DNA from: an uncultured Candidatus Saccharibacteria bacterium
GTDB taxonomy: Bacteria > Patescibacteriota > Doudnabacteria > UBA920
Assembly (NCBI GenBank): GCA_964473815.1
Contig: CAYYQK010000005.1
Coordinates: 3,847 to 67,846, forward strand
Reading direction: 5' to 3'
Length of the DNA stretch: 64,000 bases
Each line of letters begins with the position of its first letter. Position 1 is the stretch's first letter. The notes beneath the pieces were generated by a model that saw only the letters and a list, made by a program, of their open reading frames with translations, had not been told where the DNA came from and searched no databases. This document shows positions 24,463 through 43,452 of the stretch, piece after piece. A program made the position numbers and the translations under genes.

Positions 24463-24516
24463 TAAAGCCGATCCCAAATCTGGAATCGGCTTTTCATTTC
24501 GGAGTACTGAAAACAT

Positions 24517-24894: not shown

Positions 24895-25005
24895 ATTTCA
24901 CCTCGTGTTGGATTGTCGATTCTGAATCGTATCACAATTACTCAGATTATTCAACCCATCAAAAAAGAGCCTACGAAAGGCTCTTTTTATATTAAATTAT
25001 GCGGA

Positions 25006-26040: not shown

Positions 26041-26088
26041 CTCTTTTCTTTCTGATTAATTCTATTATTTCGTTCTGATTCGTCCTGA

Positions 26089-29000
26089 TTATTGGCAGGC
26101 TTCACATTCCGGGTCGTCTAGACGGCAAAGCTTGAATGCGGTTTGGTCGAGGGTTGCAGCGCCGCCGGTATTCATAGAGAACCCAGCACTCATCGGCGAA
26201 ATTGGGGTTGGTTCTACTTTGTAGCTCACAGATTCTGTGACTGCTTCTGTGACAGTTTCACTTACGGTTTCTTCTACAACAGCGGCCATCATTTGTTCGG
26301 CAGCCATAACTGGTTCTTGAACTTGTGGCTGTACAGGTGCAACAGGTTGCGGTACTGGGTCGATGGCACCGGAAGGAATTTGATCTTCAACACGTTGACC
26401 TAATTTTGATTCTCCGCTTCGCAAGTGAGTTTTGCCAAATTCAGCGGCATTCACAGTAGACTTTTCTACCTGCGATGCAGCCAATGAACGCAAGTAGTAT
26501 GTAGTCTTCACACCCATATCGTAAGCGTAAATGTAAATGTCATTGATATCTTTACCACTCTTACCGCCGTAGAACACATTCAAACTTTGTGACTGATCAA
26601 TCCACTTACCGCGGAATGCTGCCGCGCGAATTAACCATTTGGCATCAACTTCAAAAACTTCTTTGTACTTATCTTTCAATTCCTGTGGGATGCCGGCGAT
26701 TTCACCAACACGGCCATCGTTAAATTTGAGCTGGGCGATCATATCGTCGTTCCACATACCGATCTTCTTCAAATCTTCCACCAAGTATTGATTAATAACC
26801 ACGAAGTCACCAGAGATATTGGCTTTTACATAAATGTTTTTGTAAATCGGTTCAATTGAAGGAATGGCACCAGAAATATTGGAAATAGTTGCAGTTGGAG
26901 CAATCGCCATGGTGTTTGAGTTACGCATGCCGTATTCAGCCACATGCTGACGAACTGGTGTCCAGTCCAAACGACCAGTGCGGGACACTGGAATTTCTTC
27001 ACCACGCTCTTGTTCCAGCAAAGCGATGGTGTCGACCGGGAAAATGCCCCGATCCCATTTACTGCCTCGGTAAGAAGAGTAAGCACCGCGTTCTTTGGCG
27101 AGCAAGCTTGAACCCATAATTGCGTAGTAAGACACTGCTTCCATGCTGTAGTCAGCAAATTCAACCATGGCTTCTGAATCAAAATTGATTCCTTGCTGGT
27201 AAAGCGCGTCGTGGAATCCCATGATACCCAAACCAACTGGACGGTGACGCAAATTTGAATTTTTTGCTTCAGGGGTTGGATAGAAATTTAAGTCGATAAC
27301 ATTATCGAGCATGCGCATTGCTGTGGTAACAGTGTACTGCAATTTTTCGACGTCAAACTGACCGCGGGCAATGTGACGGGCCAAGTTGATGGAACCCAAG
27401 TTACATACCGCAATTTCATCTTTGGAGGTGTTCAGCGTGATTTCAGTACAAAGGTTGGAGCTGTGAACTACACCAACGTGATCTTGTGGCGAACGAATAT
27501 TGCTTGGGTCTTTGAAAGTAATCCATGGGTGACCTGTTTCGAATAACATTGTGAGCATTTTCTTCCAAAGGTCACGCGCTTTCATTTGCTTGAAAAGCTT
27601 CAATTCACCAGCCATGCCTTTTTGTTCGTAGCGTTCGTACATGCGCTTGAATTCGCGGCCGTACAAGTCGTGCAGTTCCGGGGTTTCGTCGGGAGAGAAC
27701 AAAGACCACATCCCATCAGCTTTAACACGCTGCATGAACAAATCTGGAATCCAGTTGGAAGTGTTCATGTCATGAGTGCGGCGGCGTTCGTCACCAGTGT
27801 TTTTGCGAAGTTCCAAGAAATCTTCAATGTCATAGTGCCAAGTTTCAAGGTATGCGCAAGTCGCGCCGCGCTTGCGACCGCTGCGCGAAATTGCCACAGT
27901 TACGTCATTTGCAATTTTTAAGAATGGAATTACACCCTGGCTTTCAATACCGGCTTGCTTAATTAACGCACCAGTCGCGCGAAGCTTGCTCCAGTCATTA
28001 CCAAGCCCACCGCTCCATTTGGAGAGTTGAGCGTTGTCCCCGTAGGCTTTGAAAATATTTGCCAAATCATCTTCTACAGTTGTTAAATAACAAGATGATA
28101 GCTGGGAGTGGATCATACCCGAGTTAAACAAAGTTGGTGATGATGGCACAAAGTGCAAAGTCGAAATAACCCGGTAAAATTCTACGGCGCGGGCTTCTTT
28201 ATTTTCTTCGTTCAAAGACAAACCCATAGCGACACGCATCCAGAACATCTGTGGGGTTTCGAGTAATTCCTTGGTTTCTGGGATACGAGTAAAGTAGCGG
28301 TCGTTCAAAGTTTGTACAGCCAAGTAAGACAAAAGACTATCGCGATCGCGAACCAACTCAGAGGCAATATACTCTAAATTAAAAGTCAGCATGCGAGGGT
28401 CTAAACGACGGGCGGATACACCCTTGCTCACACAGCGGACAAACGCTTCTCGCAATTGTTCGTCTAACCGGTTGAAGTCAATGACATCTTGACCAATAAC
28501 TTCTTTGTAGAGTTTATTAGAAAGCGCGCGAGCAGCAACCGTTGAGTATGCTGGGTCACGTTCGATGAATGAGCGCAAAACCATGATAAGCGCTCGTTCA
28601 ATATCTGAAGTCTTAATGTCTTCATGAATTTCCAAACGCAATTGATTCATTACCATAGGTACGTCAATGCTGGCAGCTTCATCACCCAAAATCTTTTCCA
28701 AACTATTTTGCACTTTTGCAAGTGCAAAGGCTTCGGTCTTGCCATTGCGCTTGTGAACCATAATTTCCGCTTTGTCGATCTTCTCCAAAACTTCCTGCTT
28801 CTTTTCTTCGCGAACTTTGGTGTGCTCGTAGCGGTAAATAATATAAGCTTTGGCAACATCAAAAAGCTGAGCTTCCATCAGTTTCTTTTCAACAACGTTT
28901 TGCACGTCTTCTACCCCTGGCACACGCCCTTCGAACACAGTTTCGATTTCAGCAACAACCGCATCAGCAATTTGGTCGGTTAGCAAAGTATTGGCTTTGT

Positions 29001-29091
29001 AATTAACTTCTACGTAAGCGTGGTTGAGTGCGGATTTAATTTTCGCGGGATCAAACGGAACGGTCTCTCCGCTTCTTTTTTTAATTTCCAT
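26089..29091 (-). CDS. nrdA: Ribonucleotide reductase class I alpha subunit with two N-terminal ATP-cone domains
   Basis: 1000 aa; ATP cones 'KRSGETVPFDPAKIKSAL' and 'KRNGKTEAFALAKVQNSL'; catalytic core 'NLCTEI'; C-terminal Cys pair 'ECEACQ'. Confidence 0.9.
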   Translation of the reverse strand: MEIKKRSGETVPFDPAKIKSALNHAYVEVNYKANTLLTDQIADAVVAEIETVFEGRVPGVEDVQNVVEKKLMEAQLFDVAKAYIIYRYEHTKVREEKKQEVLEKIDKAEIMVHKRNGKTEAFALAKVQNSLEKILGDEAASIDVPMVMNQLRLEIHEDIKTSDIERALIMVLRSFIERDPAYSTVAARALSNKLYKEVIGQDVIDFNRLDEQLREAFVRCVSKGVSARRLDPRMLTFNLEYIASELVRDRDSLLSYLAVQTLNDRYFTRIPETKELLETPQMFWMRVAMGLSLNEENKEARAVEFYRVISTLHFVPSSPTLFNSGMIHSQLSSCYLTTVEDDLANIFKAYGDNAQLSKWSGGLGNDWSKLRATGALIKQAGIESQGVIPFLKIANDVTVAISRSGRKRGATCAYLETWHYDIEDFLELRKNTGDERRRTHDMNTSNWIPDLFMQRVKADGMWSLFSPDETPELHDLYGREFKRMYERYEQKGMAGELKLFKQMKARDLWKKMLTMLFETGHPWITFKDPSNIRSPQDHVGVVHSSNLCTEITLNTSKDEIAVCNLGSINLARHIARGQFDVEKLQYTVTTAMRMLDNVIDLNFYPTPEAKNSNLRHRPVGLGIMGFHDALYQQGINFDSEAMVEFADYSMEAVSYYAIMGSSLLAKERGAYSSYRGSKWDRGIFPVDTIALLEQERGEEIPVSRTGRLDWTPVRQHVAEYGMRNSNTMAIAPTATISNISGAIPSIEPIYKNIYVKANISGDFVVINQYLVEDLKKIGMWNDDMIAQLKFNDGRVGEIAGIPQELKDKYKEVFEVDAKWLIRAAAFRGKWIDQSQSLNVFYGGKSGKDINDIYIYAYDMGVKTTYYLRSLAASQVEKSTVNAAEFGKTHLRSGESKLGQRVEDQIPSGAIDPVPQPVAPVQPQVQEPVMAAEQMMAAVVEETVSETVTEAVTESVSYKVEPTPISPMSAGFSMNTGGAATLDQTAFKLCRLDDPECEACQ

Positions 29092-29135
29092 GGTTTCTTT
29101 GTTTCTAAATTATTGATATGAGTAAAATTTCGTTT

Positions 29136-29582
29136 CTAGAGTTTCAGAATCGCTTCCTTAAACTCTTCGATGTCTTCAAACTGTCGATACACACTGGCGA
29201 ACCTGATGTAAGCAACTTTGTCTACTTTTCGAATTGCCTTCATGATGATCTCGCCAATTGCATTACTGGTGATCTCTCCTCCGGAAGCTTTCTTCTGGAT
29301 TTCCTGTTCGACCGTGCCCAGGATTTTTTGGAAAGTTTGGTCAGTGTGCGGTCTTTTTTCAAAAGCCCGTCTCAGGCCCCGCTCTAGCTTTTCACGGCTA
29401 TACACCTGGCGAGTACCGTCACGTTTTAGCACAGTCAGATCGAGAATTTCGATTTGTTCATAAGTACTAAACCGGAACTCGCATTTCTCACATTCGCGAC
29501 GTCTTCGGATGGCTGCCGAATCTTCAGCTGGCCGGGAATCTACCACTTTTGTGTCACAATTTAAGCATTTGGGGCATTTCAT
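29136..29582 (-). CDS. nrdR: Transcriptional repressor NrdR
   Basis: 'MKCPKCLNCDTKVVDSRP...RRRECEKCEFRFSTYE' zinc ribbon plus ATP cone; 148 aa; heads the nrd operon. Confidence 0.9.
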   Translation of the reverse strand: MKCPKCLNCDTKVVDSRPAEDSAAIRRRRECEKCEFRFSTYEQIEILDLTVLKRDGTRQVYSREKLERGLRRAFEKRPHTDQTFQKILGTVEQEIQKKASGGEITSNAIGEIIMKAIRKVDKVAYIRFASVYRQFEDIEEFKEAILKL

Positions 29583-29718
29583 TGGGTTTTTGAAAATTAC
29601 TAAATATAGTATGCGCTTCCTAATTATACCGCTACATGTAGGGTTTCTCCAAAAATCAAAATTCCCTCGGAAATGAAATACTTTTTATTTTTTTGACGTT
29701 TTGCGACGGCAGTTATCC

Positions 29719-29754
29719 ACAAAAAACCTGCCAGGCAGTAAATTGCTGGCAGGT
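29719..29754 (-). terminator. Rho-independent terminator (minus strand) after the pilin operon / small ORF
   Basis: Perfect 9-bp arms acctgccag...ctggcaggt with an 11-nt loop, and an A7 run on + (T-run on minus). Confidence 0.55.
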
Positions 29755-29782
29755 ATTGTTAAGTTAAAAAATTAGGAAAATT

Positions 29783-30109
29783 TTATAAGAACTTGGGAGT
29801 GGATTTCCGGGGTTTTTTGGAACTATTTTTTTCAGATTTCATCAGGTAGATCGCTACTCCGATGGCGATGAGCAACAGGATAATGCCACCTAGGCCGTAA
29901 ATCACACTGCTACTGGCCTGCTGCTGTGTGGCCTGCTCCAAAGTAGTCTCTCCTACCGGCTTATTGGTATGAGGATCAATTTCTTCTATGGTTCTTTGCA
30001 GAGGAGCCCGCTCGACTCCCTGGGCAGCCGACTGTGAATATGATGAAGATTGATTATTCATAATTCTATTTATTCCAAAATTATATATGTTCCCTTTAAA
30101 GGCGCCCAC
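29783..30109 (-). CDS. Small membrane protein, hypothetical
   Basis: 108 aa, one TM helix, last gene of the minor-pilin operon. Confidence 0.3.
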   Translation of the reverse strand: MGAFKGNIYNFGINRIMNNQSSSYSQSAAQGVERAPLQRTIEEIDPHTNKPVGETTLEQATQQQASSSVIYGLGGIILLLIAIGVAIYLMKSEKNSSKKPRKSTPKFL

Positions 30110-31902
30110 GAACCGCCTGGTCCGCTGTAAAATGCTTCGCTAATCAATCCGCTGTCATAAGTCAGTGTTGCCCCGCCATCCATAGTGATTTGTTTTGCCG
30201 TTAGCGCTTTTAAAACACTGCCCCCACTTATATGCACATTTCCATCTTGGGCAATTAAAGCTACGGTGCCGGCTCCACCGGAAAGATAAATTGCATCATT
30301 CCCTGAGCAATTTGGGCCTGCGGGACAAGAGCTTGTTGTTATGACAAAAGGATAACTTCCAACGGCTCCTGAACCGGCAAAATTAGAGCCCCCTGTAAGA
30401 GTTACGTATCCATCCGTAACCAATACGCCACTATTACTTCCATAACTTGAATCAAGCTGAACTTTTCCACCATTACTTATGGTAATATTCCCATCCACCC
30501 AAACAGTTCCTGTCATTATCAAAGTGCCGCCGCCATTAACAGTTAAGTTACCCGTGATATGAGTAGGCCCCAATGTCGCCCCCGCAAATCCAACCGTAAC
30601 ATTACCGCTGGTCACTCCTCCAGCAGCTGCATCATTTTTCCAATCAGTGATGTTGTTGTCCGACAAAGGTAGAGGGGTTTGGGGAGGATCGCCTTGGGTG
30701 GTGTCACAACTCTTGTTAGTAAAGCTTGAGGTTTGGCAATATAAATACCCGGATAGTGTTGCTCCCATTACATTATGCCCCCAACCCTGATCATTTGAAG
30801 ATGTACCTATATACACGCCAGTATTGTATGAGTTCCCTCCAATATAGGAATATCCACCCCCTAAACTCAATCGGAAATATCCATCTAATCCGTTTGGTGA
30901 GGTATTAGACCATGCTCCCGTGCTTTGACGACCAATTTTTGCTGTCCCGTTTGCATAACCGTTAGAATTTGCGCCAATAATGTAGTAATTACTGGAATTA
31001 GAGCTCCCATCGATTACAAGCCAATAAGTTAAACTTGGATCCAGAACTGGAGTAGTTGGTAAAGACACCGTAACCCATCCAAAACTGGTAGTGACCGAGG
31101 ACGATGACAAAGTCGCCGATAGCAAAGTAGTTGAACCAGGCGAACCTGAGTTGTCCGTCACTATTCGAACCGTTTCATTCCCAGGATTCCCATTCTTCTT
31201 CATGAAGAATTGTACATTGGAAGTCGGGATTGAATCGGAGATTTTGAAACTTTGGGCAAAGTCTTCTGTCGCGCTTGCATTCCCAAAAGTAACACAGCTA
31301 GTGGAACTACACGAAGAAATACTTGCTGGTTGGTCATTGCTCTGGTCAACCGTTAAAGCAGAAGGATTTGCCGCAATGGCGCTACCTGTAATATGAACTC
31401 CCGTAGTAGCACTAATATTACCGTTAGAATACACACTCCCATTTATTGTTGACCCACCTGTTAAACTAAAGCCACCTGCCCCAGCCTGTACGCCATATCT
31501 AAATGAGATAACATTTGAGTTAATACCCACCTGAGTTTTTATTGTAATCTGAGAGGTTGGATTTGTGCTGTTTGGAATGTAAGCGGTGGAAGTAATTAAT
31601 TTATTTGTTGAATTAATATTTGAGATGGTTGTTGTGTAGGTTCCAGCACCCACAGCCACATTTGATTCTCCTGAAAAAGAAGAGCCTTGATTTAACTGAT
31701 AAATAGCTTTATCTAAACCCGCCTCCGCTATATTGAGTAACTGCACTTTCGCAACAGTATTGCGACTGGCTTTTATTTGAACAAACGTAGTTCCCCACAC
31801 TGCAACTGATAAAACAACCAGTACAGACATGACTATAATGCCAATGATCATTAAAGCACCGGATTCTGAGTTGATATTCAATTTATGTTTTTGAATAGTC
31901 AT
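30070..31902 (-). CDS. Large PilX-like type IV minor pilin / pilus-tip-associated protein
   Basis: N-terminal hydrophobic pilin-like segment 'GALMIIGIIVMSVLVVLSVAVWG'; Ser/Thr/Gly/Asn-rich beta-rich body; operon with two prepilins. Confidence 0.45.
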   Translation of the reverse strand: MTIQKHKLNINSESGALMIIGIIVMSVLVVLSVAVWGTTFVQIKASRNTVAKVQLLNIAEAGLDKAIYQLNQGSSFSGESNVAVGAGTYTTTISNINSTNKLITSTAYIPNSTNPTSQITIKTQVGINSNVISFRYGVQAGAGGFSLTGGSTINGSVYSNGNISATTGVHITGSAIAANPSALTVDQSNDQPASISSCSSTSCVTFGNASATEDFAQSFKISDSIPTSNVQFFMKKNGNPGNETVRIVTDNSGSPGSTTLLSATLSSSSVTTSFGWVTVSLPTTPVLDPSLTYWLVIDGSSNSSNYYIIGANSNGYANGTAKIGRQSTGAWSNTSPNGLDGYFRLSLGGGYSYIGGNSYNTGVYIGTSSNDQGWGHNVMGATLSGYLYCQTSSFTNKSCDTTQGDPPQTPLPLSDNNITDWKNDAAAGGVTSGNVTVGFAGATLGPTHITGNLTVNGGGTLIMTGTVWVDGNITISNGGKVQLDSSYGSNSGVLVTDGYVTLTGGSNFAGSGAVGSYPFVITTSSCPAGPNCSGNDAIYLSGGAGTVALIAQDGNVHISGGSVLKALTAKQITMDGGATLTYDSGLISEAFYSGPGGSWAPLKGTYIILE

Positions 31903-31904
31903 AA

Positions 31905-32462
31905 TTATTGATTTCTCAAAAAGATCACATCGTTTAAATGACTAGTTACTGTTGAAACATTTCGTACCGAGGCTTGCGTCTGCAAATCGACAGTTACTGT
32001 ATCGGCTGCAGCAGGGCTGGCATTATTGTAGGTGAAACTTAAAGAACTAACATTTTCACTAAGTAATTTTGTACCAGCATGTCGGGCACTGCTACCATTG
32101 GTTTGAATAAGTTGGTAAAGGGAGTTATTTGCTAAATAATAAATGACGTAATCACTGCCGTTGCTTATAATATTTCCATTACTGTCAAAAGCTGGAAGTT
32201 GTAGAACCAAAGTATGATTATCTGTAGTATAATTGGTACTACCAAAAGTTATGCTGCTTAATATATGGGAAGCCTGTGCAATGTACTTAGTCATGCTATT
32301 AAAAGCCTGGCGGGTACCGTCGGTTGTCTGTACCTCTGCCCTTTCCTGAAAATATACTTTGTTGTGCCATTCAAAAAGATTAAGCAACGCCACCATCAAA
32401 AAGGAAAAAATTCCTATGACAATAATAACTTCAATGAGTGTAAAACCTTTTTGGGATCTCAT
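31905..32462 (-). CDS. Type IV prepilin-like protein (N-terminal cleavage/methylation motif)
   Basis: 'KGFTLIEVIIVIGIF' prepilin peptidase site (G/FTLIE). Confidence 0.6.
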   Translation of the reverse strand: MRSQKGFTLIEVIIVIGIFSFLMVALLNLFEWHNKVYFQERAEVQTTDGTRQAFNSMTKYIAQASHILSSITFGSTNYTTDNHTLVLQLPAFDSNGNIISNGSDYVIYYLANNSLYQLIQTNGSSARHAGTKLLSENVSSLSFTYNNASPAAADTVTVDLQTQASVRNVSTVTSHLNDVIFLRNQ

Positions 32463-32860
32463 TGTCCGATCCCTCCTTGAGTGATGTAAGTTTCCAAATC
32501 TACGCTTTGAGTTTGGTTAGTCTGTTGATTCAAATAAGTAACTGTGACTTTGACATCTTTGGTTTTAGAATTTAAATCTGTCACAGTAATATTTCCGGCC
32601 CCATTTGGAATTTCTGACATTTGTGAATCTGTGAATGAGCCTGTGGACGGTAACGAAGCGAAGCTGGTCGTGCGTAAGCTTTGCATTTTTTTATCAGCAA
32701 TCCTTAAAGCCGACTCGCGATAGCGATTCATTCTATTAGTCACGACGGTTTTGGAGGTAGCTTCATACAAAACCAAAGACACTCCGATTAAAAAAACCGT
32801 GACCAAGACTTCTATCAAAGTGAAGCCATTTTGAATTGGAGTATTTTTATTTGCCTGCAC
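32459..32860 (-). CDS. Type IV prepilin-like protein (PilV-like)
   Basis: 'QNGFTLIEVLVTVFLIG' prepilin motif. Confidence 0.6.
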   Translation of the reverse strand: MQANKNTPIQNGFTLIEVLVTVFLIGVSLVLYEATSKTVVTNRMNRYRESALRIADKKMQSLRTTSFASLPSTGSFTDSQMSEIPNGAGNITVTDLNSKTKDVKVTVTYLNQQTNQTQSVDLETYITQGGIGQ

Positions 32861-33001
32861 TTTTCCTTATTTTGTTTCTATTTGCCGCCGATCGCCCATT
32901 GTCTACTTTTATATATAGTAGCATATTTAGGTGATAATCGGGGTTTGAAGGCTTGATTTTTTGGCCTAGATTTGCTAAAATGCCTGAGTACAATTTCATA
33001 T

Positions 33002-33299
33002 TCGGGAGTAGCTCAGTGGTAGAGCAATCGGCTGTGTCACAAACCATACGCAGCCCTGAATGGTAACATTTAGGTGATAACGAGGTGAATTGCTGGAAGC
33101 CTGTTTGCCGAAAGGCAATGGTAATCAGCAGCCAAGCTACTTAGTAGAAGGTTCAGAGACTATCCGCAAGGAGTACTGCGACTAGTTCGCGGGAAGCGCC
33201 TCGCATCCTAAGGGATGATGATATAGTCCACCCCTTTTCGAAAGATTAGGATAATGTGTAACCGATCGGTCCTGGGTTCGAATCCCAGCTCCCGAGCCA
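33002..33299 (+). tRNA. tRNA gene (Asn-GUU favoured by G73 discriminator, or Thr-UGU) interrupted by a group I intron in the anticodon loop
   Basis: 5' exon TCGGGAG-TA-GCTC-AGTGGTA-GAGC-A-ATCGG-CU; 3' exon ...AA-CCGAU-CGGUC-CUGGG-UUCGAAU-CCCAG-CUCCCGA-G-CCA. Acceptor, D, anticodon and T stems all pair. Confidence 0.8.
33034..33258 (+). ncRNA. Group I self-splicing intron (~223 nt) within the tRNA anticodon loop
   Basis: Contains group I core elements: P 'AATTGCTGGAA', Q 'AATCAGCAG', R 'GGTTCAGAGACTA', S 'GATATAGTCC'. The 5' exon ends in U and the intron ends in G; boundaries are uncertain by ~2 nt. Confidence 0.75.
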
Positions 33300-33301
33300 A
33301 C

Positions 33302-33335
33302 AAAAAACCACTAACTTGTTTAGCGGTTTTTTTGT
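33302..33335. terminator. Hairpin terminator following the tRNA, possibly bidirectional
   Basis: aaaaaaccactaa-cttgt-ttagcggttttttt. Confidence 0.45.
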
Positions 33336-33349
33336 TATTAAACTCTAGC

Positions 33350-33775
33350 TTAAGCTTTCTCTCGGCAATCAATCATCCATTCGATTCCGTATTTGTCTCG
33401 GAAGGAACCAAAGTAAGAACCCCAAGGGCTTTGGTTCATTGGTGATTCAACTTCTCCATCAGCAGACAACCCCTCGAACAAGCGATCTGCTTCTTCGCGG
33501 CTCTCCGCGCCAATTAAAATTTTGCTTCGGTTCTCGCGCTCGTTGGTCTTGCCCATAAACGCAGGAACATCGTTTCCCATCAACATAGTTGGTCCAATGG
33601 GTAAGGCAATGTGCATCAGTTTTTCTTTTTCTTCTTCTGGAACTTCAAATCCTGGATTTGGAATATCTTTAAAGCGAGTGAGGTCTACAAGTTCGCCACC
33701 GAAAACAGATTTGTAAAACTCAAATGCTTCTTCGGCATTGCCGTTAAAGTTCACATGCGGATGTATTGTTATCAT
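33350..33775 (-). CDS. VOC (glyoxalase/bleomycin-resistance/PhnB-like) family protein
   Basis: 'MITIHPHVNFNGNAEEAFEFYKSVFGG' typical PhnB-like N-terminus. Confidence 0.6.
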   Translation of the reverse strand: MITIHPHVNFNGNAEEAFEFYKSVFGGELVDLTRFKDIPNPGFEVPEEEKEKLMHIALPIGPTMLMGNDVPAFMGKTNERENRSKILIGAESREEADRLFEGLSADGEVESPMNQSPWGSYFGSFRDKYGIEWMIDCREKA

Positions 33776-33868
33776 AATTTAGCTTTTAATATTATATTGA
33801 TATTACCATTTTCTACATGATATTTCTATTATGCCTGATTCTCTAGTTTAGTTATTTTTTGTTATAGT

Positions 33869-34201
33869 ATGTACATGTCTACCCACATCTCAAAGATTTC
33901 CGGCGGCACTGCCCACAAATTACCACCCGACTTAAAAACTGCATTATCCAAAGACAAAAAATCTTTAGCTATTTGGGAAACTCTTACCCCACTCGCCCGC
34001 AACGAATGGATCTGTTGGGATATTTTTCCTAAACAAGAAAAAACGAGAAACGAACATATTAAGCGCACTGTTACGGAACTCAAACAAGGAAAGCGCCGAC
34101 CCTGCTGCTGGATTGGCTGTATTCACCGAAAGGACAAAGAAATTTCTCCGTCAATAAAAGCGGTACTCGCCGGGACGCTCGGCAAGGCAAAGAAAAAATA
34201 A
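33869..34201 (+). CDS. YdeI/OmpD-associated (bacteriocin-protection-like) family small protein
   Basis: 'LAIWETLTPLARNEWICW...KQEKTRNEHIKRTV' pattern; weak. Confidence 0.35.
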   Translation: MYMSTHISKISGGTAHKLPPDLKTALSKDKKSLAIWETLTPLARNEWICWDIFPKQEKTRNEHIKRTVTELKQGKRRPCCWIGCIHRKDKEISPSIKAVLAGTLGKAKKK

Positions 34202-34246
34202 AAATCGCCAGAACGGCGACTTTTTATTTATATGCGTTTAGGCACT

Positions 34247-35320
34247 TTAAATATTCAACTGAGTTACCATGCGTTTCGTAGAAAGATCCTGACTTGGCAA
34301 GGCGCGATCAAAAGAATTGGCCGGGACCTGCTCTTCAATCCAATAGCCATACGAATTAAATACATCCATATTAGAAAATGTGTATCGCCCACCAGCCTTA
34401 ACAACGAATAACGTCCCATGATCATTCACCAAAGTGCCCGATGGATGGGCCTGTTCAGTACTACCAATATTTTGTTCGTTGACCATAAATGAAGTATCAC
34501 CCGGATAAACATTTTTAAACTGATATCCTAGTTTCAAAAATACATCAGATGAAGTAAACCCAGCCCGTAATCCGTTGGTGATTAAATACACGGTGCCGTG
34601 GTCGTTTATTAATGCACCATCACGCGGCGGAATATAATAGGTCACTGGTGCACTGGCTCCATTTGGTGTGTAGTTAGTCAGTGGTAAATTCATATCAGCC
34701 TGATTCGCCTTCTTGACCTCTGACCATTTATTAAATCGGTAGGATAAAAATGCGCCTGCAGAAGTGTAAGGGCTACGACGGCCGCCAGTTTCAATATGAT
34801 AAACCGTGCCATCTGTTCCTAAAATATTTGTCCCAGGATCATGCGCGCCAGTATTCTGATCGGGTATATTTGGCGTCGCAGGATCAGTAGTTTTGTTTGC
34901 GCCACTCACTGTAAAGTACCCATCAGAAATTCCCTGGGCACTAAAATCAGGGGCTTTGTATACTACAAACTTATAATAATTTGCCTGAACGGCGTTTCCG
35001 CCATCACTCTTTGAAACATCAACAGTCCAAGTGTAAGTACCATTATTTGAAATTGGGGTTGGGGTTAAATTGAAAAATGCCTGATTCACGTCATCATAAA
35101 CCGAAGTGTTATCCTTATAACCCAAAACTGCTAAGTAAACTTGCGGGATTGTCCCATTTGTAGTCCAAGTGACCGTGACTTGCTGTCCTTGTGAAAAATT
35201 CTTTCCACCCATCAGACTAGTGATGGTAAAAGACTCTCCGGACGCAGCTATGGCTGGTTGAGGAAATAATACAACCAAAGCGAATAAACCAATTGCAAGT
35301 TTTGAAATTATATTTCTCAT
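34247..35320 (-). CDS. Secreted hypothetical protein
   Basis: Signal peptide 'LFALVVLFPQPAIAAS'; beta-rich, Thr/Gly/Asn-rich. Confidence 0.4.
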   Translation of the reverse strand: MRNIISKLAIGLFALVVLFPQPAIAASGESFTITSLMGGKNFSQGQQVTVTWTTNGTIPQVYLAVLGYKDNTSVYDDVNQAFFNLTPTPISNNGTYTWTVDVSKSDGGNAVQANYYKFVVYKAPDFSAQGISDGYFTVSGANKTTDPATPNIPDQNTGAHDPGTNILGTDGTVYHIETGGRRSPYTSAGAFLSYRFNKWSEVKKANQADMNLPLTNYTPNGASAPVTYYIPPRDGALINDHGTVYLITNGLRAGFTSSDVFLKLGYQFKNVYPGDTSFMVNEQNIGSTEQAHPSGTLVNDHGTLFVVKAGGRYTFSNMDVFNSYGYWIEEQVPANSFDRALPSQDLSTKRMVTQLNI

Positions 35321-35638
35321 AAAAGTTAAATAATGTTAGTTATATTATATCACCTTTTAAGTCAATTTGTGCTAGAATAGGCTTATGGAACACGAAACAT
35401 TCTGGAGCCTGCTCAGAGATCCCGCGCATTGGTATTTTGAACTTTTCCTAATTCTGATTTTCGACATTCTGATCGGTGCCTTAATTTGGCCCCGACTCAG
35501 GAAATCTTTTACTCATCATAAAGAAGATGATGAGCGCATCGACGAATTAGAAAAGCGCATCAAACAACTCGAAGACTCCCAGCGATAATTATATCGCTCA
35601 CAATACCGCCGGAAGGCGGTTTTTGTTATACTACCCCT

Positions 35639-35998
35639 ATGGACGCCCTAAAAGATCAGATCTACATACTCGAAACCCAGCTTTTACATGCTGATGTACG
35701 CAATTCACGCACTGCTCTTGATGAACTTCTTTCGGAAGATTTTTTGGAGTTCGCCGGAAGTGGAAATATTTTCGACAAGAAAAAAATCCTCGATAGCCTG
35801 CCTGGCGCCCCGACACCGCATTTCATCATGCATGACTTTGCTATCCATGAACTGTCACCGGTTTTAATTCTTGCTACCTATAAAATGGAAAAACAAGATA
35901 ACGACAGCGAATTTTCACTGCGCAGTTCGATTTGGCAAAAGGAACAAAATGCCTGGAAAATGCGTTTCCACCAAGGGACAATTTTAACTAAACAATAA
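35639..35998 (+). CDS. DUF4440 / NTF2-like (SnoaL-like) protein
   Basis: 'LDELLSEDFLEFAGSGNIFDKKKILDSL' resembles DUF4440. Confidence 0.4.
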   Translation: MDALKDQIYILETQLLHADVRNSRTALDELLSEDFLEFAGSGNIFDKKKILDSLPGAPTPHFIMHDFAIHELSPVLILATYKMEKQDNDSEFSLRSSIWQKEQNAWKMRFHQGTILTKQ

Positions 35999-36016
35999 TT
36001 ATTAATCACTACTTTT

Positions 36017-36433
36017 ATGAATCCCGTAGTACATTTTGAACTGCCAGTCGAAGATCGCGACCGCGCCAGCGAATTTTATAACAAAGCTTTTGGCTGGAAC
36101 GCAAATAAACTGGGTGAAGACATGGGCAACTACACTGTTGTGCAAACCACTGACACCGACGAAAATCGCATGCCAAAAACCCCCGGCCAAATTAATGGCG
36201 GGCTGTACATGAAAACTAAAGATGATCAATTCCCCACTGTTGTAATTGCCGTAGATGACATCCACGAGTCAATGAAAAAAGTTGAAGAAGCGGGTGGTCA
36301 AATTATTGGTGGTGGCCATGCTGCTGGTGAACCAGATGATATTCCTGGTGTTGGCCTCTACATTGCTGTTCGCGATTCCGAAGGCAATCGCATTGCGATC
36401 CTACAACCTAAAGGCATGGGCCCGCAAAATTAA
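36017..36433 (+). CDS. VOC/glyoxalase family protein
   Basis: 'VVHFELPVEDRDRASEFYNKAFGW' glyoxalase-like beta-alpha-beta-beta-beta start. Confidence 0.55.
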   Translation: MNPVVHFELPVEDRDRASEFYNKAFGWNANKLGEDMGNYTVVQTTDTDENRMPKTPGQINGGLYMKTKDDQFPTVVIAVDDIHESMKKVEEAGGQIIGGGHAAGEPDDIPGVGLYIAVRDSEGNRIAILQPKGMGPQN

Positions 36434-36485
36434 GTCAGAAATATTAGACGCTTTCGGCGTCTTTTATTTTTGATATAATAAAGTC

Positions 36486-37055
36486 ATGAATAAGAAAAAT
36501 TTTTGGCCATTTTTTATCTTTGCCATTATTCTGATCGTAATGGCCGCGATCGAACACTTCCAAGGCCGCCTCACCTATTGTGCTTGCGGATACATTAAAG
36601 TGTGGCACGGCATCGTTAATGATTCTGGCGACTCGCAGCACTTGTTTGACTGGTACTCTTTCACACATGTCTTACATGGTGTTCTTTTTTACTTTGGCCT
36701 GTGGTTAATAGACAGAAAAAAGAAACTCACTCTAACAACAAAATTTTTAATCGCCATTGGCCTAGCCGCTGGCTGGGAGATCTTAGAAAATTCTTCTTAC
36801 ATTATTGATCGTTACCGCACCGCCACATTTTCACTCAATTATTACGGTGACACAGTAATTAATTCTGTGGGTGACGTCATTTCCGCAGCGATCGGTTTCT
36901 TTATTACCTCGCGTGTGCGCTGGTGGATGTCACTCATTTTATTTATCGCCATCGAAACAATGCTCGCACTTGTAATTCGCGACAACCTGACCATCAACAT
37001 CATCATGTTGATTCACCCAATCGAAGCAATCAAAACCTGGCAGCAAGGTTTGTAA
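36486..37055 (+). CDS. Polytopic membrane protein, hypothetical
   Basis: 189 aa, 4-5 TM helices. Confidence 0.35.
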   Translation: MNKKNFWPFFIFAIILIVMAAIEHFQGRLTYCACGYIKVWHGIVNDSGDSQHLFDWYSFTHVLHGVLFYFGLWLIDRKKKLTLTTKFLIAIGLAAGWEILENSSYIIDRYRTATFSLNYYGDTVINSVGDVISAAIGFFITSRVRWWMSLILFIAIETMLALVIRDNLTINIIMLIHPIEAIKTWQQGL

Positions 37056-37517
37056 CTCATTTTATAGAAAAAATAAAAAGCGGCGAGTCCTGAACACAAA
37101 TAGTTATTCATTTCTCGCCCCAGTTTTTGATGTGTCTTGCCTTCATCTCTTCAAGCTCAGCTTCATCTGAGATGATGTCGAACTCGCCCATGAACCACTC
37201 TTTGGGGAAGGATCGCTTACATGTGCTCTCCTTATAACTTTTACACAATCTCTTTTGAGTAGCGTGGGTCATGCATTGGCAAAACATCCGTAAAGTATAC
37301 ATCTCAAAGCGATCGTCAATTTCGACCACCTGGCCGAATGAATGATCTGGTCAGTCGAACGGGTCTTTATCCGCTATTGGGAAGGGTCTTCTGCGAACCC
37401 AATTGCCTATCTTCGGAACATCAGACATAATACACCTCCTTCATTACTTATCCGTTTCAGGATATACTAATATAAACTTTTTACAATTAAATTGCAACTG
37501 TTAAATAAATAAAATAT

Positions 37518-38033
37518 ATGCAAAAAATTACTCCATTTCTGTGGTTTAATACCGAGGCCGAAGAAGCTATGAACTTCTACACCAGTGTATTCGCCAGTCG
37601 TCCTGGCACTGCAAACGGCGAATCAAAAGTTGCCAGCATTAAAAGATACCCAGATGGTCCACTGGAAGGCCCGATGAAAGGCATGGAAGGCAAAGTCCTT
37701 ACTGCTGAATTCTTACTCGATGGCCAGCGCTTTCTTTGCTTAGACGGCGGTCCAATCTTTAAACCAACTGCGGCGATGTCACTTTACGTAGAATGCGAAG
37801 ATCAAGCAGAAGTCGATCATTTTTGGACAAAGTTAAGCGAAGGTGGTAATCCAGAAATGCAACAATGCGGCTGGCTGCAAGACCGTTTTGGTTTCTCCTG
37901 GCAGATTATTCCAAAAGCACTTCCCCAACTTCTCACAGACCCAGACAAAGCAAAAGCAGACCGTGTTCTCGCGGCCATGATGCAAATGAAAAAAATTGAT
38001 GTCGCTGGCTTGGAAGCCGCGGCAGGCGTATAA
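37518..38033 (+). CDS. VOC family protein (PhnB/YjdN-like)
   Basis: 'MQKITPFLWFNTEAEEAMNFYTSVF' characteristic PhnB-like start. Confidence 0.55.
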   Translation: MQKITPFLWFNTEAEEAMNFYTSVFASRPGTANGESKVASIKRYPDGPLEGPMKGMEGKVLTAEFLLDGQRFLCLDGGPIFKPTAAMSLYVECEDQAEVDHFWTKLSEGGNPEMQQCGWLQDRFGFSWQIIPKALPQLLTDPDKAKADRVLAAMMQMKKIDVAGLEAAAGV

Positions 38034-38205
38034 TAAAAGTATGAAAATTAAGATTGAGCAACACACAATTTCAGGGGCAACCTGGATTGCTGCATGGTTA
38101 TTCACCATCGGCTTTCTGCACTTGTCCTTCTGGGCTGGTGTTTTGGCCATTCTAATTTGGCCATACTACTTAGGCGCACACTTCGCCCACTAATCTAAAT
38201 CCAAA

Positions 38206-38715
38206 ATGGATCACGATCACTCGCAACACGAGCTCGAGGCCACGCCTTTAGAGTACCTAAAATTTTGCGGAGTAATTTTAGGAATTATTCTTCTGTCATA
38301 CGCAGTCTCGACTTTCGGACAAACTTTCTCTTGGCAAAACTTCTTCCCAAAATTTATGGGAATGTTTTTCTTGGTGTTCGCGTTATTTAAATTTCTCGAC
38401 CTGCTCGGCTTTGCCACTTCTTACATTGGCTACGATGTCATCGCCAAACGTTCAATTACTTACGCTTACATCTACCCGTTCATAGAATTAGCAATGGCAC
38501 TTGGTTACTTATTTAAAATCCCTTACACAGAAGGGGTCACTTTGGTGTTCATGGCAATCGGTTCAATTGGAGTCCTTCGCGAACTGATGCGCCACAGCAA
38601 CATCAAATGCGCTTGCCTCGGCACTTACATTAAATTACCACTCACCACGGTGAGTTTAATAGAAGATGTGGTCATGGGGATAATGGCCTTGCTAATGATC
38701 CTCAAAATCTTCTAA
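38206..38715 (+). CDS. MauE/DoxX-like membrane protein
   Basis: 169 aa, 4 TM helices; weak family guess. Confidence 0.35.
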   Translation: MDHDHSQHELEATPLEYLKFCGVILGIILLSYAVSTFGQTFSWQNFFPKFMGMFFLVFALFKFLDLLGFATSYIGYDVIAKRSITYAYIYPFIELAMALGYLFKIPYTEGVTLVFMAIGSIGVLRELMRHSNIKCACLGTYIKLPLTTVSLIEDVVMGIMALLMILKIF

Positions 38716-38724
38716 ACTAAAACT

Positions 38725-38991
38725 ATGACCGAACAAGAAGCCATTACCAAACTTGAACAACTGGGATACACCGATGTTCACATCGTGCGTTTTGAGGCTG
38801 GCCACCAACTCGGCCAACACACTCACGACCTCATGACCGGTCACATTATTCTCACCGGAGAAATGTTTGTAACCGATGAAGATGGTACAGACGTGATCGA
38901 AAAAGGAGACTTGTTTGAAGTCCCTGCCGGAACTACTCATTCAGTTTCCGTTGGTACCGAGCCGTGCGCCATGGCCATGGGCACGAAGTAG
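38725..38991 (+). CDS. Cupin domain protein
   Basis: 88 aa 'GQHTHDLMTGHIILTGE...GDLFEVPAGTTHSV' two-His cupin motifs. Confidence 0.5.
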   Translation: MTEQEAITKLEQLGYTDVHIVRFEAGHQLGQHTHDLMTGHIILTGEMFVTDEDGTDVIEKGDLFEVPAGTTHSVSVGTEPCAMAMGTK

Positions 38992-39007
38992 CTATTGCTA
39001 CTGCCAG

Positions 39008-40504
39008 CTATTGCTGCCGCGCCAACTGCAACGCTTTTTCTCTTGCAATATTATAGGACTGCCAACTTTCAGTTTTTGGCAGTTTTTGTTTAGACTTTTC
39101 GATGTAATCGCGCTGCAACTGCTTATCTTCTTCAGTAGTTGGATTAAACTTTTCCAAAATTACCGGTGTTGCATCTGCTGACAAAGACAGTAAATATTTC
39201 GCGTCCAATTTGTCGGTACCAGCAAACTGCGTAAGATTTTTCTGAGCTACGTATTTATCCGGATTCAAAATATCCATTCCAACAAAAAAACAAATCAATA
39301 TTATTATTGTCCCAAGTGCAAAGAATGCATGTGGTTTGTTTTGAATTAACTTGATAGCCAACAGCACAAAAATTGCAGCAAGGAAAGTAATAAACCCAAA
39401 AACATACAAACGCATTTCGGTCATACCATATGCGGCCTGATATAAGGCCAGTCTTTGGAATGCTGAAATGATGATCACCATAACCTCTGCTGCAATTAGC
39501 AATGCCGGCAATATAAACCATTTTGTACGAGCTGCAAGTTTGCTAGTATAGTGATCAACACTCAATAAAATCAATAGCGTGCTAAAAGCCACGATCAACA
39601 ATTCCCAAAAACCCTTGCGGGCATATTCGGCGTAGGTGTATCCGGCAAAAGAAATATTTATTGCGCCTCCGAACATGTAATGCATCTGGAACAAGATGAA
39701 CAATAAAAACAAAGCAGCAATCAAAAATAAGAACACCGCGATTTCTATTTTCCGGTTTTCACCATTTTCATTTCCTAGCGGGCTAGCTATGTTTAGCAAT
39801 TCAGAAAGTTCCCCACTGATTTTATCTGAAGGATTAAATAGGTAGGCAAACAAACCCATGCACAAAATAAAAATTATAATGATAACTACAACTTGCGGGA
39901 TTAGTGTATCAGGAAGATGCCATGCAAAAGTGTTAGCAATAAACTGACGAAAGGCTAAATCTGCAGCAGCAAACAAAATTCCAAAAAATACTAGCACTGG
40001 TAAAGCAGTTAGAACTCCGATAAGTACCTGTCGGCTTTTCCCAAGTTGTACATTTTGAGCGCCCCGCAGCAAACTAAACAATGCGCCAAATCCGCGGCCC
40101 AAAAATTTAAATGGCCACAGTACTGCAGTAAAAAAATAATCAGCTAACGAAAAATTATTAATATTATCTAAAGTTACTGCTCGGACCATGAGCAAATACA
40201 TACCGAGGGCACCCAATGCATTTAAGAAGTCTACAAAACCATTGGCGCGCAGCATGGGCACAAAAATAAAAATCAAATATGGGAGTACAAACCACTGAGC
40301 AGGTTTAAAATTTAATTGACGACTACGCGTAAACCAAAACAGCATCCCCAAAACAAGCACACCATAAATAGTTACCGACACTCCCCAAATTTTGTTGAAA
40401 AATAAGTAATCAAATATAACCGCCAAAAAGCCGGCTACTAGAGGCCAGGGCCAGAACGAACTCATTTTTATATTAGTATCTTTGGTTTCAGCTGTAGTAT
40501 CCAT
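39008..40504 (-). CDS. Large polytopic membrane protein, hypothetical
   Basis: 498 aa with more than 10 TM helices. Confidence 0.4.
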   Translation of the reverse strand: MDTTAETKDTNIKMSSFWPWPLVAGFLAVIFDYLFFNKIWGVSVTIYGVLVLGMLFWFTRSRQLNFKPAQWFVLPYLIFIFVPMLRANGFVDFLNALGALGMYLLMVRAVTLDNINNFSLADYFFTAVLWPFKFLGRGFGALFSLLRGAQNVQLGKSRQVLIGVLTALPVLVFFGILFAAADLAFRQFIANTFAWHLPDTLIPQVVVIIIIFILCMGLFAYLFNPSDKISGELSELLNIASPLGNENGENRKIEIAVFLFLIAALFLLFILFQMHYMFGGAINISFAGYTYAEYARKGFWELLIVAFSTLLILLSVDHYTSKLAARTKWFILPALLIAAEVMVIIISAFQRLALYQAAYGMTEMRLYVFGFITFLAAIFVLLAIKLIQNKPHAFFALGTIIILICFFVGMDILNPDKYVAQKNLTQFAGTDKLDAKYLLSLSADATPVILEKFNPTTEEDKQLQRDYIEKSKQKLPKTESWQSYNIAREKALQLARQQ

Positions 40505-40606
40505 ATATTTATTATACGCCTCTGATTAGTGAAAGTAACTTGAAATTTTCCCGCTTACTCATGCGAAAACTGGATTTTTTTGTCAGAGTGTGCTATAATA
40601 ATAAAG

Positions 40607-41047: not shown

Positions 41048-41087
41048 TTTTCAATAATTTTAAAAGCCGACATTGCTGTCGGCTTTT

Positions 41088-42158: not shown

Positions 42159-42200
42159 TTGTGATTCTATGATCGGAGGATTTTAACCTTCGATATAGTA

Positions 42201-43423: not shown

Positions 43424-43452
43424 CTGAAATTCCCATCATCTAATTTTAACAT

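Follow-up and report, generated by a model that had tools for sequence, protein, structure and literature searches.

Positions 33002..33299 (+) of the window, by which we mean the whole 64,000-nt stretch of DNA that was analysed, very probably hold a single tRNA-Asn(GUU) gene in which U35 and U36 are separated by a 223-nt group I intron lacking an ORF (33036..33258, +) and predicted to leave the precursor by group I splicing. Sequence and covariation together point to catalysis of this splicing by the intron.

Exons and predicted intron fold

The 5' exon (33002..33035, +) consists of the acceptor 5' strand TCGGGAG (33002-33008), the D arm (33011-33025), the anticodon stem 5' strand ATCGG (33027-33031) and C32, U33, G34 and U35, with C32 and U33 at 33032-33033. 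The 3' exon (33259..33299, +) opens with U36, A37 and A38, reads AA-CCGAT from 33260 into the anticodon stem 3' strand, and continues through the variable loop CGGUC, the T arm, the acceptor 3' strand CTCCCGA, G73 and an encoded CCA that ends at 33299. Both tRNA halves described in the original prediction are thus present in full, with one correction: the prediction closed the 5' half at C32-U33, whereas the true 5' exon is two bases longer and runs through G34-U35. When the intron is removed at these junctions, ARAGORN identifies the product as tRNA-Asn(gtt) of 75 nt with a 7-nt anticodon loop. Scanners had been expected to miss or mis-type the gene, and they did: default ARAGORN reported 0 tRNAs in the window, while its intron-aware mode called tRNA-Thr(tgt) i(33,223), the wrong register.

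The intron was characterised by Rfam RF00028, fold covariation and an ORF check. The RF00028 search, which the prediction of a group I intron had called for, returned a full-length match at 33026..33250 (+; model positions 1-253 of 253, E = 9.9e-18) with 76.7 bits against a gathering score of 50 bits. This is the sole Rfam match within the 64-kb window, and the same threshold was passed by 9 of 10 homologous loci tested (56-100 bits). The four core elements follow one another on the plus strand in the order claimed for them, P (AATTGCTGGAA, 33088-33098), Q (AATCAGCAG, 33123-33131), R (GGTTCAGAGACTA, 33150-33162) and S (GATATAGTCC, 33220-33229), an arrangement far beyond chance. The longest open frame inside the intron has 35 codons, and the endonuclease ORF expected of a mobile intron is absent.

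We evaluated the fold by covariation in a MAFFT alignment of 55 homologs, using 67 pairs, 500 shuffles and five measures. Of the cells, 89.1% were paired; shuffling lowered this share to 71.1%, and sliding the partners to 35-43%. Both sides changed in 48 of the 67 pairs, the covariation score was 0.443 against 0.143, and on each of the five measures the observed value was matched by 0 of 500 shuffles. The MAFFT alignment is wrong for the intron side of P1 (21% paired) and for P5a (44% paired), and P1 was assessed separately. As judged from these data, a canonical group I core can form in the primary transcript. The P3-P7 core, on whose folding the original prediction was staked, holds together, with the pairing of P3, P4, P6 and P8 backed by compensatory changes and P7 fully paired.

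All elements of the predicted fold lie on the plus strand. P1 (33030..33055) pairs GGCUGU and, across the 5' splice site, GU (33030-33037) with the internal guide ACGCAGCC (33048-33055) around the loop L1 (33038-33047), and the wobble pair at the splice site is U33035.G33050. Since G30 and G31 serve both P1 and the anticodon stem, formation of P1 is in competition with the complete stem, and P1 may in reality be shorter than this. P2 (33056..33073) is a 7-bp hairpin with a GUAA (GNRA) tetraloop, in which 7 of 7 pairs change on both sides and the loop L2 is GNAA in 55 of 55 aligned sequences. The P3 5' strand (33081..33087) pairs with the 3' strand (33197..33203), which was placed by the RF00028 match and covariation; P3 is 93% paired, and 4 of its 7 pairs change on both sides. 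Between 33088 and 33130, J3/4 (AAU), P4, P5 and a putative P5a hold the P and Q elements: P4 (33091-33096 with 33125-33130) is 98-99% paired with compensatory changes, and P5 and P5a (33100-33121, GAAA loop) are 97% and 44% paired, the latter value reflecting a region poorly aligned by MAFFT. P6 (100% paired) and P6a (91%) occupy 33131..33152 and show both-side changes.

The P7 5' strand (33156..33162), within the R element and with A33157 bulged, pairs with 33224-33229 in a pseudoknot with P3. Its 6 pairs do not vary among the 55 sequences (100% paired), so that covariation neither supports nor contradicts them; we take G33158-C33228 to be the guanosine-binding pair from general knowledge of group I introns. 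P8 (33205..33216), a short 4-bp hairpin, is 93% paired, and 3 of its 4 pairs change on both sides. J8/7 and the P7 3' strand (33217..33229; S element, GAUGAUAUAGUCC) are identical in 44 of 55 sequences, and the core AUAUAGUCC is invariant. P9 (33233-33250, GAAA loop) covaries, and its loop L9 is GNAA in 51 of 55 sequences. It is enclosed by P9.0 (A33230-U33257 and C33231-G33256, spanning 33230..33257), directly 3' of which G33258, the last intron base, is the predicted terminal guanosine (omega-G). P10 was not found: the 3' exon starts with UAA, and an A able to pair with U36 occurs at the guide in just 6 of 105 homologs, the window having C33049 there. P10 is dispensable in other tRNA introns, and its absence is therefore compatible with group I membership. 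Folding P1 and P10 had been proposed as the way to fix the junctions; P1 places the wobble at U35, as the Asn anticodon requires.

An additional domain (33163..33192) occupies the P7.1/P7.2 position between P7 and P3'. It consists of a UCC-GCAA-GGA hairpin (33163-33172), GUAC and a 6-bp hairpin (33176-33192), and shows up as an insertion of 32 nt against the Rfam consensus. Both hairpins covary, the first being 97% paired and the second 84% with both-side changes in 6 of 6 pairs, and the motif GRGTAC of this domain was found in 45 of the 111 homologs listed. The intron otherwise displays IC3-type traits, namely insertion in a tRNA anticodon loop, a compact core, and GNRA loops on P2 (GUAA) and P9 (GAAA). 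In the Michel-Westhof scheme, however, subgroup IC3 has a short J7/3 joining the P7 5' strand to P3', and no P7.1/P7.2. Because the two-hairpin domain breaks with the short J7/3, we do not assign the intron to IC3.

Proposed splicing of the precursor

In the predicted fold, P1 presents the 5' splice site through the U35.G wobble against the guide, P3 to P8 with the invariant P7 make up the catalytic core, and P9.0 sets G33258 as the terminal guanosine. The standard group I mechanism would then apply: P7 would bind a free guanosine, which would attack after U35, omega-G would next take over the same binding site, and the 3'-OH of U35 would attack after G33258. CUGU and UAA would thereby be joined, giving a 75-nt tRNA-Asn with the 7-nt anticodon loop CUGUUAA. 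With P10 missing, the exons would presumably be kept in register by the tRNA body and the anticodon stem, as reported for Anabaena pre-tRNA-Leu. For the tRNA-Leu intron, Zaug et al. (1993), a paper listed in PMC3984707, reportedly assign exon alignment to the anticodon stem and not to a strong P10.

Dependence on protein cofactors in vivo is frequent among group I introns (review PMC3984707), and the intron could be a genuine group I element that is inefficient alone and depends in the cell on a maturase-like protein or chaperone, possibly the HNH protein of its relatives or a host factor. The missing P10, the short P8 and the competition between the anticodon stem and P1 are in keeping with such a requirement. 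We nevertheless consider it improbable. Small bacterial tRNA introns such as those of Azoarcus and Anabaena self-splice robustly (PMC13168695), and for the former this has been demonstrated; the GNRA loops L2 and L9 are kept, and the additional covarying P7.1/P7.2-like domain would stabilise the core. Furthermore, no candidate cofactor gene is linked to the intron within the window.

Decay of the element offers a still less probable explanation, in which a remnant unable to splice sits in a tRNA pseudogene and a second, intact tRNA-Asn gene elsewhere does the work. Loss of the endonuclease ORF and the minimal P8 could be read as signs of such decay, but the core is intact in all its elements and agrees with the family consensus, conserved homologs have identical P7, J8/7 and GNRA loops, the window shows flawless P1 and P9.0 helices, and the exons make up an undamaged cloverleaf with its CCA encoded. 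CPR genomes, moreover, usually have one gene per tRNA species. The gene is also flanked by promoter-like and terminator-like signals. Upstream, a promoter-like site (TTGATT-17-TAAAAT with a TG extension, 32953..32981, +) lies ~20 nt before tRNA position 1; a consensus scan found 1 such site against 1.3 expected in shuffles, which makes it only suggestive, while its position suits a short leader. Downstream, an A-rich/T-rich hairpin (33299..33336, not assigned to a strand; RNAfold -10.9 kcal/mol) separates the tRNA from the convergent ORF 33350-33775(-). A scan with a strict terminator consensus did not call this hairpin, which we interpret as terminator-like and possibly bidirectional. The neighbourhood of the gene in the window includes a pilin-like cluster, NrdR and RNR.

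Choice of splice register

Two splice registers had been predicted to agree with the rules for group I intron ends, and both do. Removal of 223 nt in either one leaves a 75-nt cloverleaf that ARAGORN accepts, and in each the 5' exon has U and the intron G as its last base. The second register would place the intron at 33034..33256, end the 5' exon at U33 and yield tRNA-Thr(UGU), which is the reading chosen by intron-aware ARAGORN. The original prediction leaned towards Asn on account of discriminator G73, and comparative data settled the matter in that direction.

For this comparison, species-representative genomes were scanned, giving at least 120 loci, of which at least 108 are the same split tRNA-Asn (109 with the window), mostly from CPR/Patescibacteria. 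A parser based on stem complementarity, which assumes no loop sequence, resolved 111 loci. Positions 32-35 read CUGU (CTGT in DNA) and are followed by a variable base in 109 of the 111 parsed loci listed, and the 3' exon begins with UAA in 109 of 109 listed split genes. The guide GCAG, found in 105 of 109 listed homologs, sets G opposite U35 as a wobble and A opposite U33, so that P1 has its wobble where the Asn register needs it and an ordinary U-A pair at the end of the Thr exon. The invariance of G34-U35 in the 109 homologs, next to following bases that vary, likewise places the exon end at U35, and the pair just 3' of this splice site covaries among the listed homologs (G:C 49, C:G 22, A:U 13, G:U 12). 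At the other end of the intron, the two P9.0 pairs of the Asn register are canonical in 109/109 and 108/109 homologs with compensatory changes (C:G 80, U:A 14, A:U 9), compared with just 16/109 and 18/109 for those of the Thr register. The proposed omega-G is G in all 111 parsed loci listed, whereas the position at which the Thr register requires a terminal G is A, T or C in ~25 of the homologs listed.

The tRNA body leads to the same result. Bacterial tRNA-Asn is marked by a U1-A72 pair with discriminator G73, while tRNA-Thr normally has G1-C72 and A/U73. The window has T33002 (U1), A33295 (A72) and G33296 (G73), and U1, A72 and G73 recur in 109 of the 111 parsed loci listed. In addition, 113 natural intron-less tRNA-Asn genes from metagenome contigs read ...AATCGGCTGT-TAACCGAT, exactly the ligated anticodon arm of the window in the Asn register; these genes have unrelated acceptor stems only, and they are silent on presence/absence polymorphism among close relatives. 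Metagenome contigs with the same 26-nt 5' half were uninterrupted in 119 of the 119 evaluable cases. Because the CUGU/UAA exon ends, the U35.G wobble and the P9.0 pairs hold across homologs, the register is assigned as Asn(GUU), with the intron at 33036..33258; the Thr register is refuted by the comparative data and retains only a very slight probability.

Two automated approaches were rejected in the course of this analysis. Intron-aware ARAGORN placed introns arbitrarily in the homologs, assigning one and the same gene to Asn, Thr, Tyr, His, Asp or Lys. P1 finders using a fixed 9-nt window or a longest-helix heuristic returned spurious helices, which in 34 and 11 cases, respectively, set A against U35; the P1 results given here come from a guide-motif search and a covariation table.

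The least probable explanation, a chimeric assembly that joins two tRNA fragments to an unrelated intron between them, can be set aside: a metagenome assembly is probable and the NrdR of the window is found on metagenome-run contigs, but over 100 independent assemblies, produced by different studies, show the same architecture and junctions, and the exon halves complement each other perfectly.

Related introns and biological meaning

The homologs indicate that this intron lineage occupies the exact tRNA-Asn site in many CPR/Patescibacteria genomes. The closest exon matches among those listed are L097 (Doudnabacteria), L018 and L118. A syntenic relative, L049, has upstream pilin-like genes in common with the window (39-49% amino acid identity) and near-identical exons, with ~92% identity over the aligned pre-tRNA (exons and ribozyme), and it carries a ~340-nt ORF insertion in L1, the P1 loop. 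The host of the window is most likely a CPR bacterium: a cyanobacterial origin was considered and rejected in view of the neighbouring pilin-like cluster, NrdR and RNR, the synteny with L049 and the exon matches just named. The locus is also carried by the sequencing run ERR4682891, from a CPR-rich sample. HNH-like ORFs of ~100-135 aa are present in L1 of ~30 listed relatives; they score 19-20 bits with Pfam HNH (cutoff 21.4) and contain a CxxC..HH..CxxC..H motif. The window intron is the form of this lineage without an ORF, while other members encode an HNH-like homing endonuclease in the P1 loop. L020, L096, L032, L008 and L037 form a minority subfamily at the Asn site and have an Azoarcus-like core, ..GUAGAGACUAGA...

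Among known systems, the Azoarcus tRNA-Ile intron is similar in being small (~205 nt), ORF-less, bacterial and located in a tRNA anticodon loop, in building P1 from the anticodon loop and the 5' strand of the stem, and in combining GNRA loops at P2 and P9 with a P9.0 that precedes omega-G. It is inserted after position 36 of tRNA-Ile rather than at 35/36 of tRNA-Asn, and its P7 leads straight into P3', where the window has the 32-nt two-hairpin insertion. Anabaena-type tRNA-Leu introns share the anticodon-loop location and a vertical and horizontal spread within one phylum, but they have no P7.1/P7.2-like domain, are inserted between positions 34 and 35, and belong to Cyanobacteria and plastids instead of CPR. 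The cyanobacterial tRNA-fMet intron, which encodes I-Ssp6803I, represents another anticodon-loop family with ORF-containing and ORF-less members; I-Ssp6803I is of the PD-(D/E)XK type, whereas the ORF of the Asn lineage is HNH-like, lies in the P1 loop and is missing from the window copy. Bonocora and Shub (2001), a paper listed in PMC3984707, reportedly describe I-Ssp6803I as targeting the intron-less tRNA gene at its anticodon region.

Some CPR tRNAs bear group I introns and are difficult to detect (Lui et al. 2021, PMC8172020), the phylum and the kind of element being the same as here; that study gives no isotype. In a phage collection, the sole match was to the P3-P7 core of DNA polymerase introns and not to the exons or periphery: blastn found this core (window 33079-33177) 78-81% identical in Felix-O1-like phages, whose introns lie in protein-coding genes and whose match is limited to the universally conserved core. 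A plasmid collection contained no match to the split tRNA-Asn or its intron. A 2025 preprint by Nakagawa et al. is said to treat tRNA introns of Patescibacteria and may already cover the split tRNA-Asn. On group I introns in bacterial tRNA-Asn, the literature searched yielded only organelle papers or misuse of the term, and the 2014 review never mentions Asn (PMC3984707). The original view of Asn as a less common host thus describes the classical literature well and nature poorly, given at least 108 split tRNA-Asn genes among at least 120 loci. It is possible, though on balance doubtful, that the 35/36 site of tRNA-Asn(GUU), the IA-like P7.1/P7.2 on an IC-like core and the HNH endonuclease in the P1 loop together define an uncatalogued, phylum-wide intron lineage.

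The split tRNA-Asn looks unusual but is common in CPR/Patescibacteria and fairly ordinary there, and it overturns nothing known of group I introns. Its consequences for annotation are direct: because standard tRNA finders miss or mis-type the gene, CPR genomes can seem to be without tRNA-Asn or to have an extra tRNA-Thr, which distorts completeness checks and inferences about the genetic code and translation. A comparative rule that could be incorporated into annotation settles the anticodon without ambiguity: the U.G wobble opposite the GCAG guide together with the 2-bp P9.0 before omega-G. With one tRNA site filled in more than 100 species-level genomes by ORF-containing and ORF-less introns of more than one core type, tRNA-Asn is well suited as a natural system in which to study how homing introns are gained, decay and persist in minimal genomes. 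If the reading as an uncatalogued, phylum-wide lineage is correct, reduced CPR genomes that have just one tRNA-Asn gene would rely on ribozyme splicing to decode every asparagine codon, and translation could be coupled to the availability of guanosine/GTP.

The split tRNA gene

All stems of a tRNA are present at 33002..33299 (+), with the anticodon loop interrupted by 223 nt, as the original prediction had described. The insert contains the P (33088-98), Q (33123-31), R (33150-62) and S (33220-29) elements, all on the + strand and in the order claimed. Running the group I covariance model returned a full-length Rfam match at 33026..33250 (76.7 bits, E 9.9e-18; gathering threshold 50), and the Rfam search of the 64-kb window found no family other than the group I intron. 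ARAGORN reported zero tRNA genes across the 64-kb window under default settings and, with introns allowed, typed the gene as tRNA-Thr(tgt), while excision of 223 nt in either register yielded a 75-nt cloverleaf (ARAGORN). Together, the group I match, the cloverleaf and the scanner results indicate that the feature is real and non-random and that, as had been anticipated, a standard scanner misses or mis-types it. The split tRNA-Asn is the sole tRNA gene detected in the window (1..64000).

Splice register and tRNA identity

The rule that the 5' exon ends in U and the intron in G is satisfied, in the window sequence alone, by two registers on the + strand: intron 33036..33258, giving tRNA-Asn(GUU), and intron 33034..33256, giving tRNA-Thr(UGU). 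We scanned GTDB representatives (one genome per species) with a pattern that favours neither register (S element, variable gap, G-TAA, fixed spacing, T arm), and at least 120 loci matched. The 5' halves were parsed solely by acceptor, D and anticodon stem complementarity, giving 111 loci, including the window, among the matches listed. Across these parsed loci among the matches listed, CUGU occupies loop positions 32-35 and precedes a variable base in 109 of 111, UAA after a G begins the 3' exon in every case, and the triplet before UAA is GUG in 83, AUG in 14, UUG in 8 and another in 6; therefore, about 25 genes lack the G required by the Thr register.

The guide GCAG, present in 105 of 109 introns among the matches listed, pairs C32-G, U33-A, G34-C and U35.G, so that the hallmark wobble pair falls at U35. 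The pair 3' of the splice site, which joins the opening base of the intron to the one preceding GCAG, covaries and is canonical in 98/105 among the matches listed (G:C 49, C:G 22, A:U 13, G:U 12). P9.0, in which the two bases before the proposed omega-G (the terminal guanosine of the intron) pair with the two bases after P7', is canonical among the matches listed in 109/109 introns at one pair (A:U 101, G:C 4, G:U 3, U:A 1) and in 108/109 at the other (C:G 80, U:A 14, A:U 9, U:G 5), whereas the corresponding pairs for the Thr register are canonical in only 16/109 and 18/109. The tRNA-Thr(UGU) register was thus rejected on the homologs without its G, these P9.0 counts and the placement of the wobble at U35 instead.

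U1, A72 and G73, a signature of bacterial tRNA-Asn and not of tRNA-Thr, occur in 109 of the 111 parsed loci among the matches listed. Furthermore, all 119 evaluable metagenome contigs retrieved with the window's 26-nt 5' half are uninterrupted, and 113 of them read ...AATCGGCTGT-TAACCGAT, the exact ligation product of the Asn register. These nucleotides and the uninterrupted genes give two independent supports for Asn identity. Judged from sequence, the gene is tRNA-Asn(GUU), with its predicted intron (33036..33258) between positions 35 and 36 and G33258 as omega-G. The original prediction had leaned toward Asn without deciding, a preference upheld by the conserved exon ends, P1 guide, P9.0 and U1/A72/G73.

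Intron fold and proposed splicing

The structure was drawn from the Rfam alignment, an MFE fold and inspection. On the + strand, P1 (33030-37 with 33048-55) carries the splice-site wobble U33035.G33050, and the remaining elements are P2 (33056-73; loop GUAA), P3 (33081-87 with 33197-203), P4 (33091-96 with 33125-130), P5/P5a (33100-121; loop GAAA), P6/P6a (33131-152), P7 (33156-162 with 33224-229; A33157 bulged), two extra hairpins between P7 and P3' (33163-172 and 33176-192), P8 (33205-216; 4 bp), P9.0 (33230-31 with 33256-57) and P9 (33233-250; loop GAAA). Projected on a MAFFT alignment of 55 homologs, this structure places standard pairs in 89.1% of cells, compared with 71.1% in column shuffles and 35-43% with partners slid 1-3 columns; both sides change in 48 of 67 pairs, and the covariation score is 0.443 versus 0.143 for shuffles, and slid partners score no higher than 0.106. 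None of 500 shuffles reached the observed values on any measure. In these 55 homologs, covariation occurs in P2, P3, P4, P6, P8, P9.0, P9 and the two extra hairpins, and P7 is 100% paired and invariant. MAFFT misaligns P5a and the intron side of P1; P1 was assessed separately through guide pairing. GNAA loops cap L2 in 55/55 and L9 in 51/55 aligned sequences, which would fit tetraloop-receptor contacts as in the Azoarcus intron. The extra hairpins form a covarying 32-nt insertion at the position of P7.1/P7.2 in subgroup IA; because this insertion distinguishes the window intron from the Azoarcus/Anabaena IC3 type, we do not file it under IC3.

These comparisons show a canonical group I core with covariation, a 5' splice-site wobble pair and a terminal G positioned by P9.0. 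By the established group I mechanism, splicing would proceed through guanosine-initiated two-step transesterification, with a predicted 75-nt tRNA-Asn product bearing the anticodon loop CUGUUAA. P10 is absent: among the matches listed, the complementary A occurs in only 6/105 guides though the 3' exon starts UAA everywhere. Hence, it is probably the tRNA body with its anticodon stem that aligns the exons, as Zaug et al. reportedly described in 1993 for Anabaena pre-tRNA-Leu (listed in PMC3984707). Since P1 takes G30 and G31 of the anticodon stem, the two partly compete. On weak evidence, a promoter-like site (32953-32981, +) lies upstream of the gene and an A/T-flanked hairpin (33299-33336, -10.9 kcal/mol) downstream.

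Related introns, neighbourhood and significance

Intron lengths in the 111 parsed loci among the matches listed are bimodal (180-345 nt versus about 510-630 nt). About 30 of these 111 tRNA-Asn introns are long, each encoding a protein of ~100-135 aa in the P1 loop (L004, L009, L027, L029-L031, L033, L034, L049, L050, L066, L069, L071-L073, L084, L086, L091, L093, L100, L118, L119 and others). The ORFs carry the motif CxxC..HH..CxxC..H (more fully, CxxCGY..(E/D)(F/L)HH..CANCH.E.H), score 19-20 bits against Pfam HNH, just under the 21.4 cutoff, and likely encode a homing endonuclease that targets the anticodon region of tRNA-Asn. Locus L049 has exons near-identical to those of the window and ~92% identity across the aligned pre-tRNA, a span that takes in the ribozyme from P3 on, and its intron differs by a ~340-nt ORF insertion in L1. 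By this comparison, the window intron, whose longest open frame is just 35 codons, represents a homing-intron lineage in its ORF-less form.

A minority of tRNA-Asn introns among the matches listed (L020, L096, L032, L008, L037) lacks the P7.1/P7.2-like insertion and has an Azoarcus-like core (GGGAUAAC ... CCGUAGAGACUAGAUAC), with insertion again between 35 and 36. Introns with more than one type of core therefore occupy this position, which suggests that independent invasions or core replacement may have occurred. Locus L242, on a predicted viral contig (IMGVR_UViG_3300028299_000003, 76.6 kb; 141-206, minus strand; locus GC 29%), has G1-C72, G73 and a CTGT loop followed by a 226-nt group I-like intron and TAA. 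If true, a phage would carry a split gene resembling tRNA-Asn; phage tRNA genes had no introns known at the time of a 2014 review (PMC3984707). Locus L247 (IMGVR_UViG_3300019776_000919, 170 kb; 1858-1939, minus strand), with loop CTTT, 657 nt, TAA and discriminator A, looks like a tRNA-Lys(UUU) split at 35/36 by a long intron, which, if true, would place the site in another isotype.

The window (GC 42.5%) places the split tRNA beside a pilin-like cluster (GFTLIEV N-termini), NrdR and ribonucleotide reductase. Three consecutive ORFs (610, 185 and 133 aa; 30070..32860, -) lie directly upstream; two have N-termini of the prepilin type (GFTLIEV...), and L049 shares this pilin-like arrangement at 39-49% aa identity. 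NrdR (148 aa; Zn-ribbon and ATP-cone) adjoins a 1000-aa ribonucleotide reductase large subunit with ATP-cone (26089..29582, -); an identical NrdR protein occurs on contigs of metagenome run ERR4682891. Among the matches listed, split-gene loci are labelled overwhelmingly as Patescibacteria/CPR MAGs and in a few cases as Omnitrophota, Elusimicrobia or other, and the exons most like those of the window belong to L097 (Candidatus Doudnabacteria), L018 and L118. With the pilin-like genes shared by L049, these exon matches point to a CPR bacterium as the most likely host. Some labels of loci from co-assembly bins look unreliable. Contigs labelled 'uncultured Gammaproteobacteria' (co-assembly bins; L008, L033, L053, L054, L064, L071, L078, L088, L099, L107, L112, L119) have tRNA-Asn exons that agree exactly or almost exactly with those of Patescibacteria MAGs; for example, L054 and L099 match L011, L025, L036, L056 and L061. 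Near its split tRNA-Asn, the CPR-labelled contig of L011 also has a match to Rfam LOOT RNA (RF03000; 7814-7918, -; 50.7 bits, gathering 46.4).

The classical bacterial tRNA hosts of group I introns are Leu(UAA), fMet, Ile(CAU) and Arg(CCU). The tRNA-Asn host and its insertion site are missing from such lists yet very common in nature; the expectation that an Asn host would be less common thus holds for the lists and fails against at least 120 matched loci, with CUGU in 109 of 111 parsed. The 2014 review does not mention Asn (PMC3984707), and we found no paper in the open literature that reports a bacterial tRNA-Asn with a genuine group I intron. The tRNAscan-SE 2.0 paper gives manual finds in fMet and Ile2 only, the program not being meant for detecting such introns; Lui et al. 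2021 briefly mention group I introns in some CPR tRNAs (PMC8172020), and a 2025 preprint, by its title, concerns those of Patescibacteria tRNA genes. Nothing in the mechanism is out of the ordinary, and such introns have already been reported from the phylum. The finding and its interpretation stand overall, with the register resolved to Asn(GUU), and their main value lies in annotation and in a natural system that shows how minimal genomes gain introns and how these decay.
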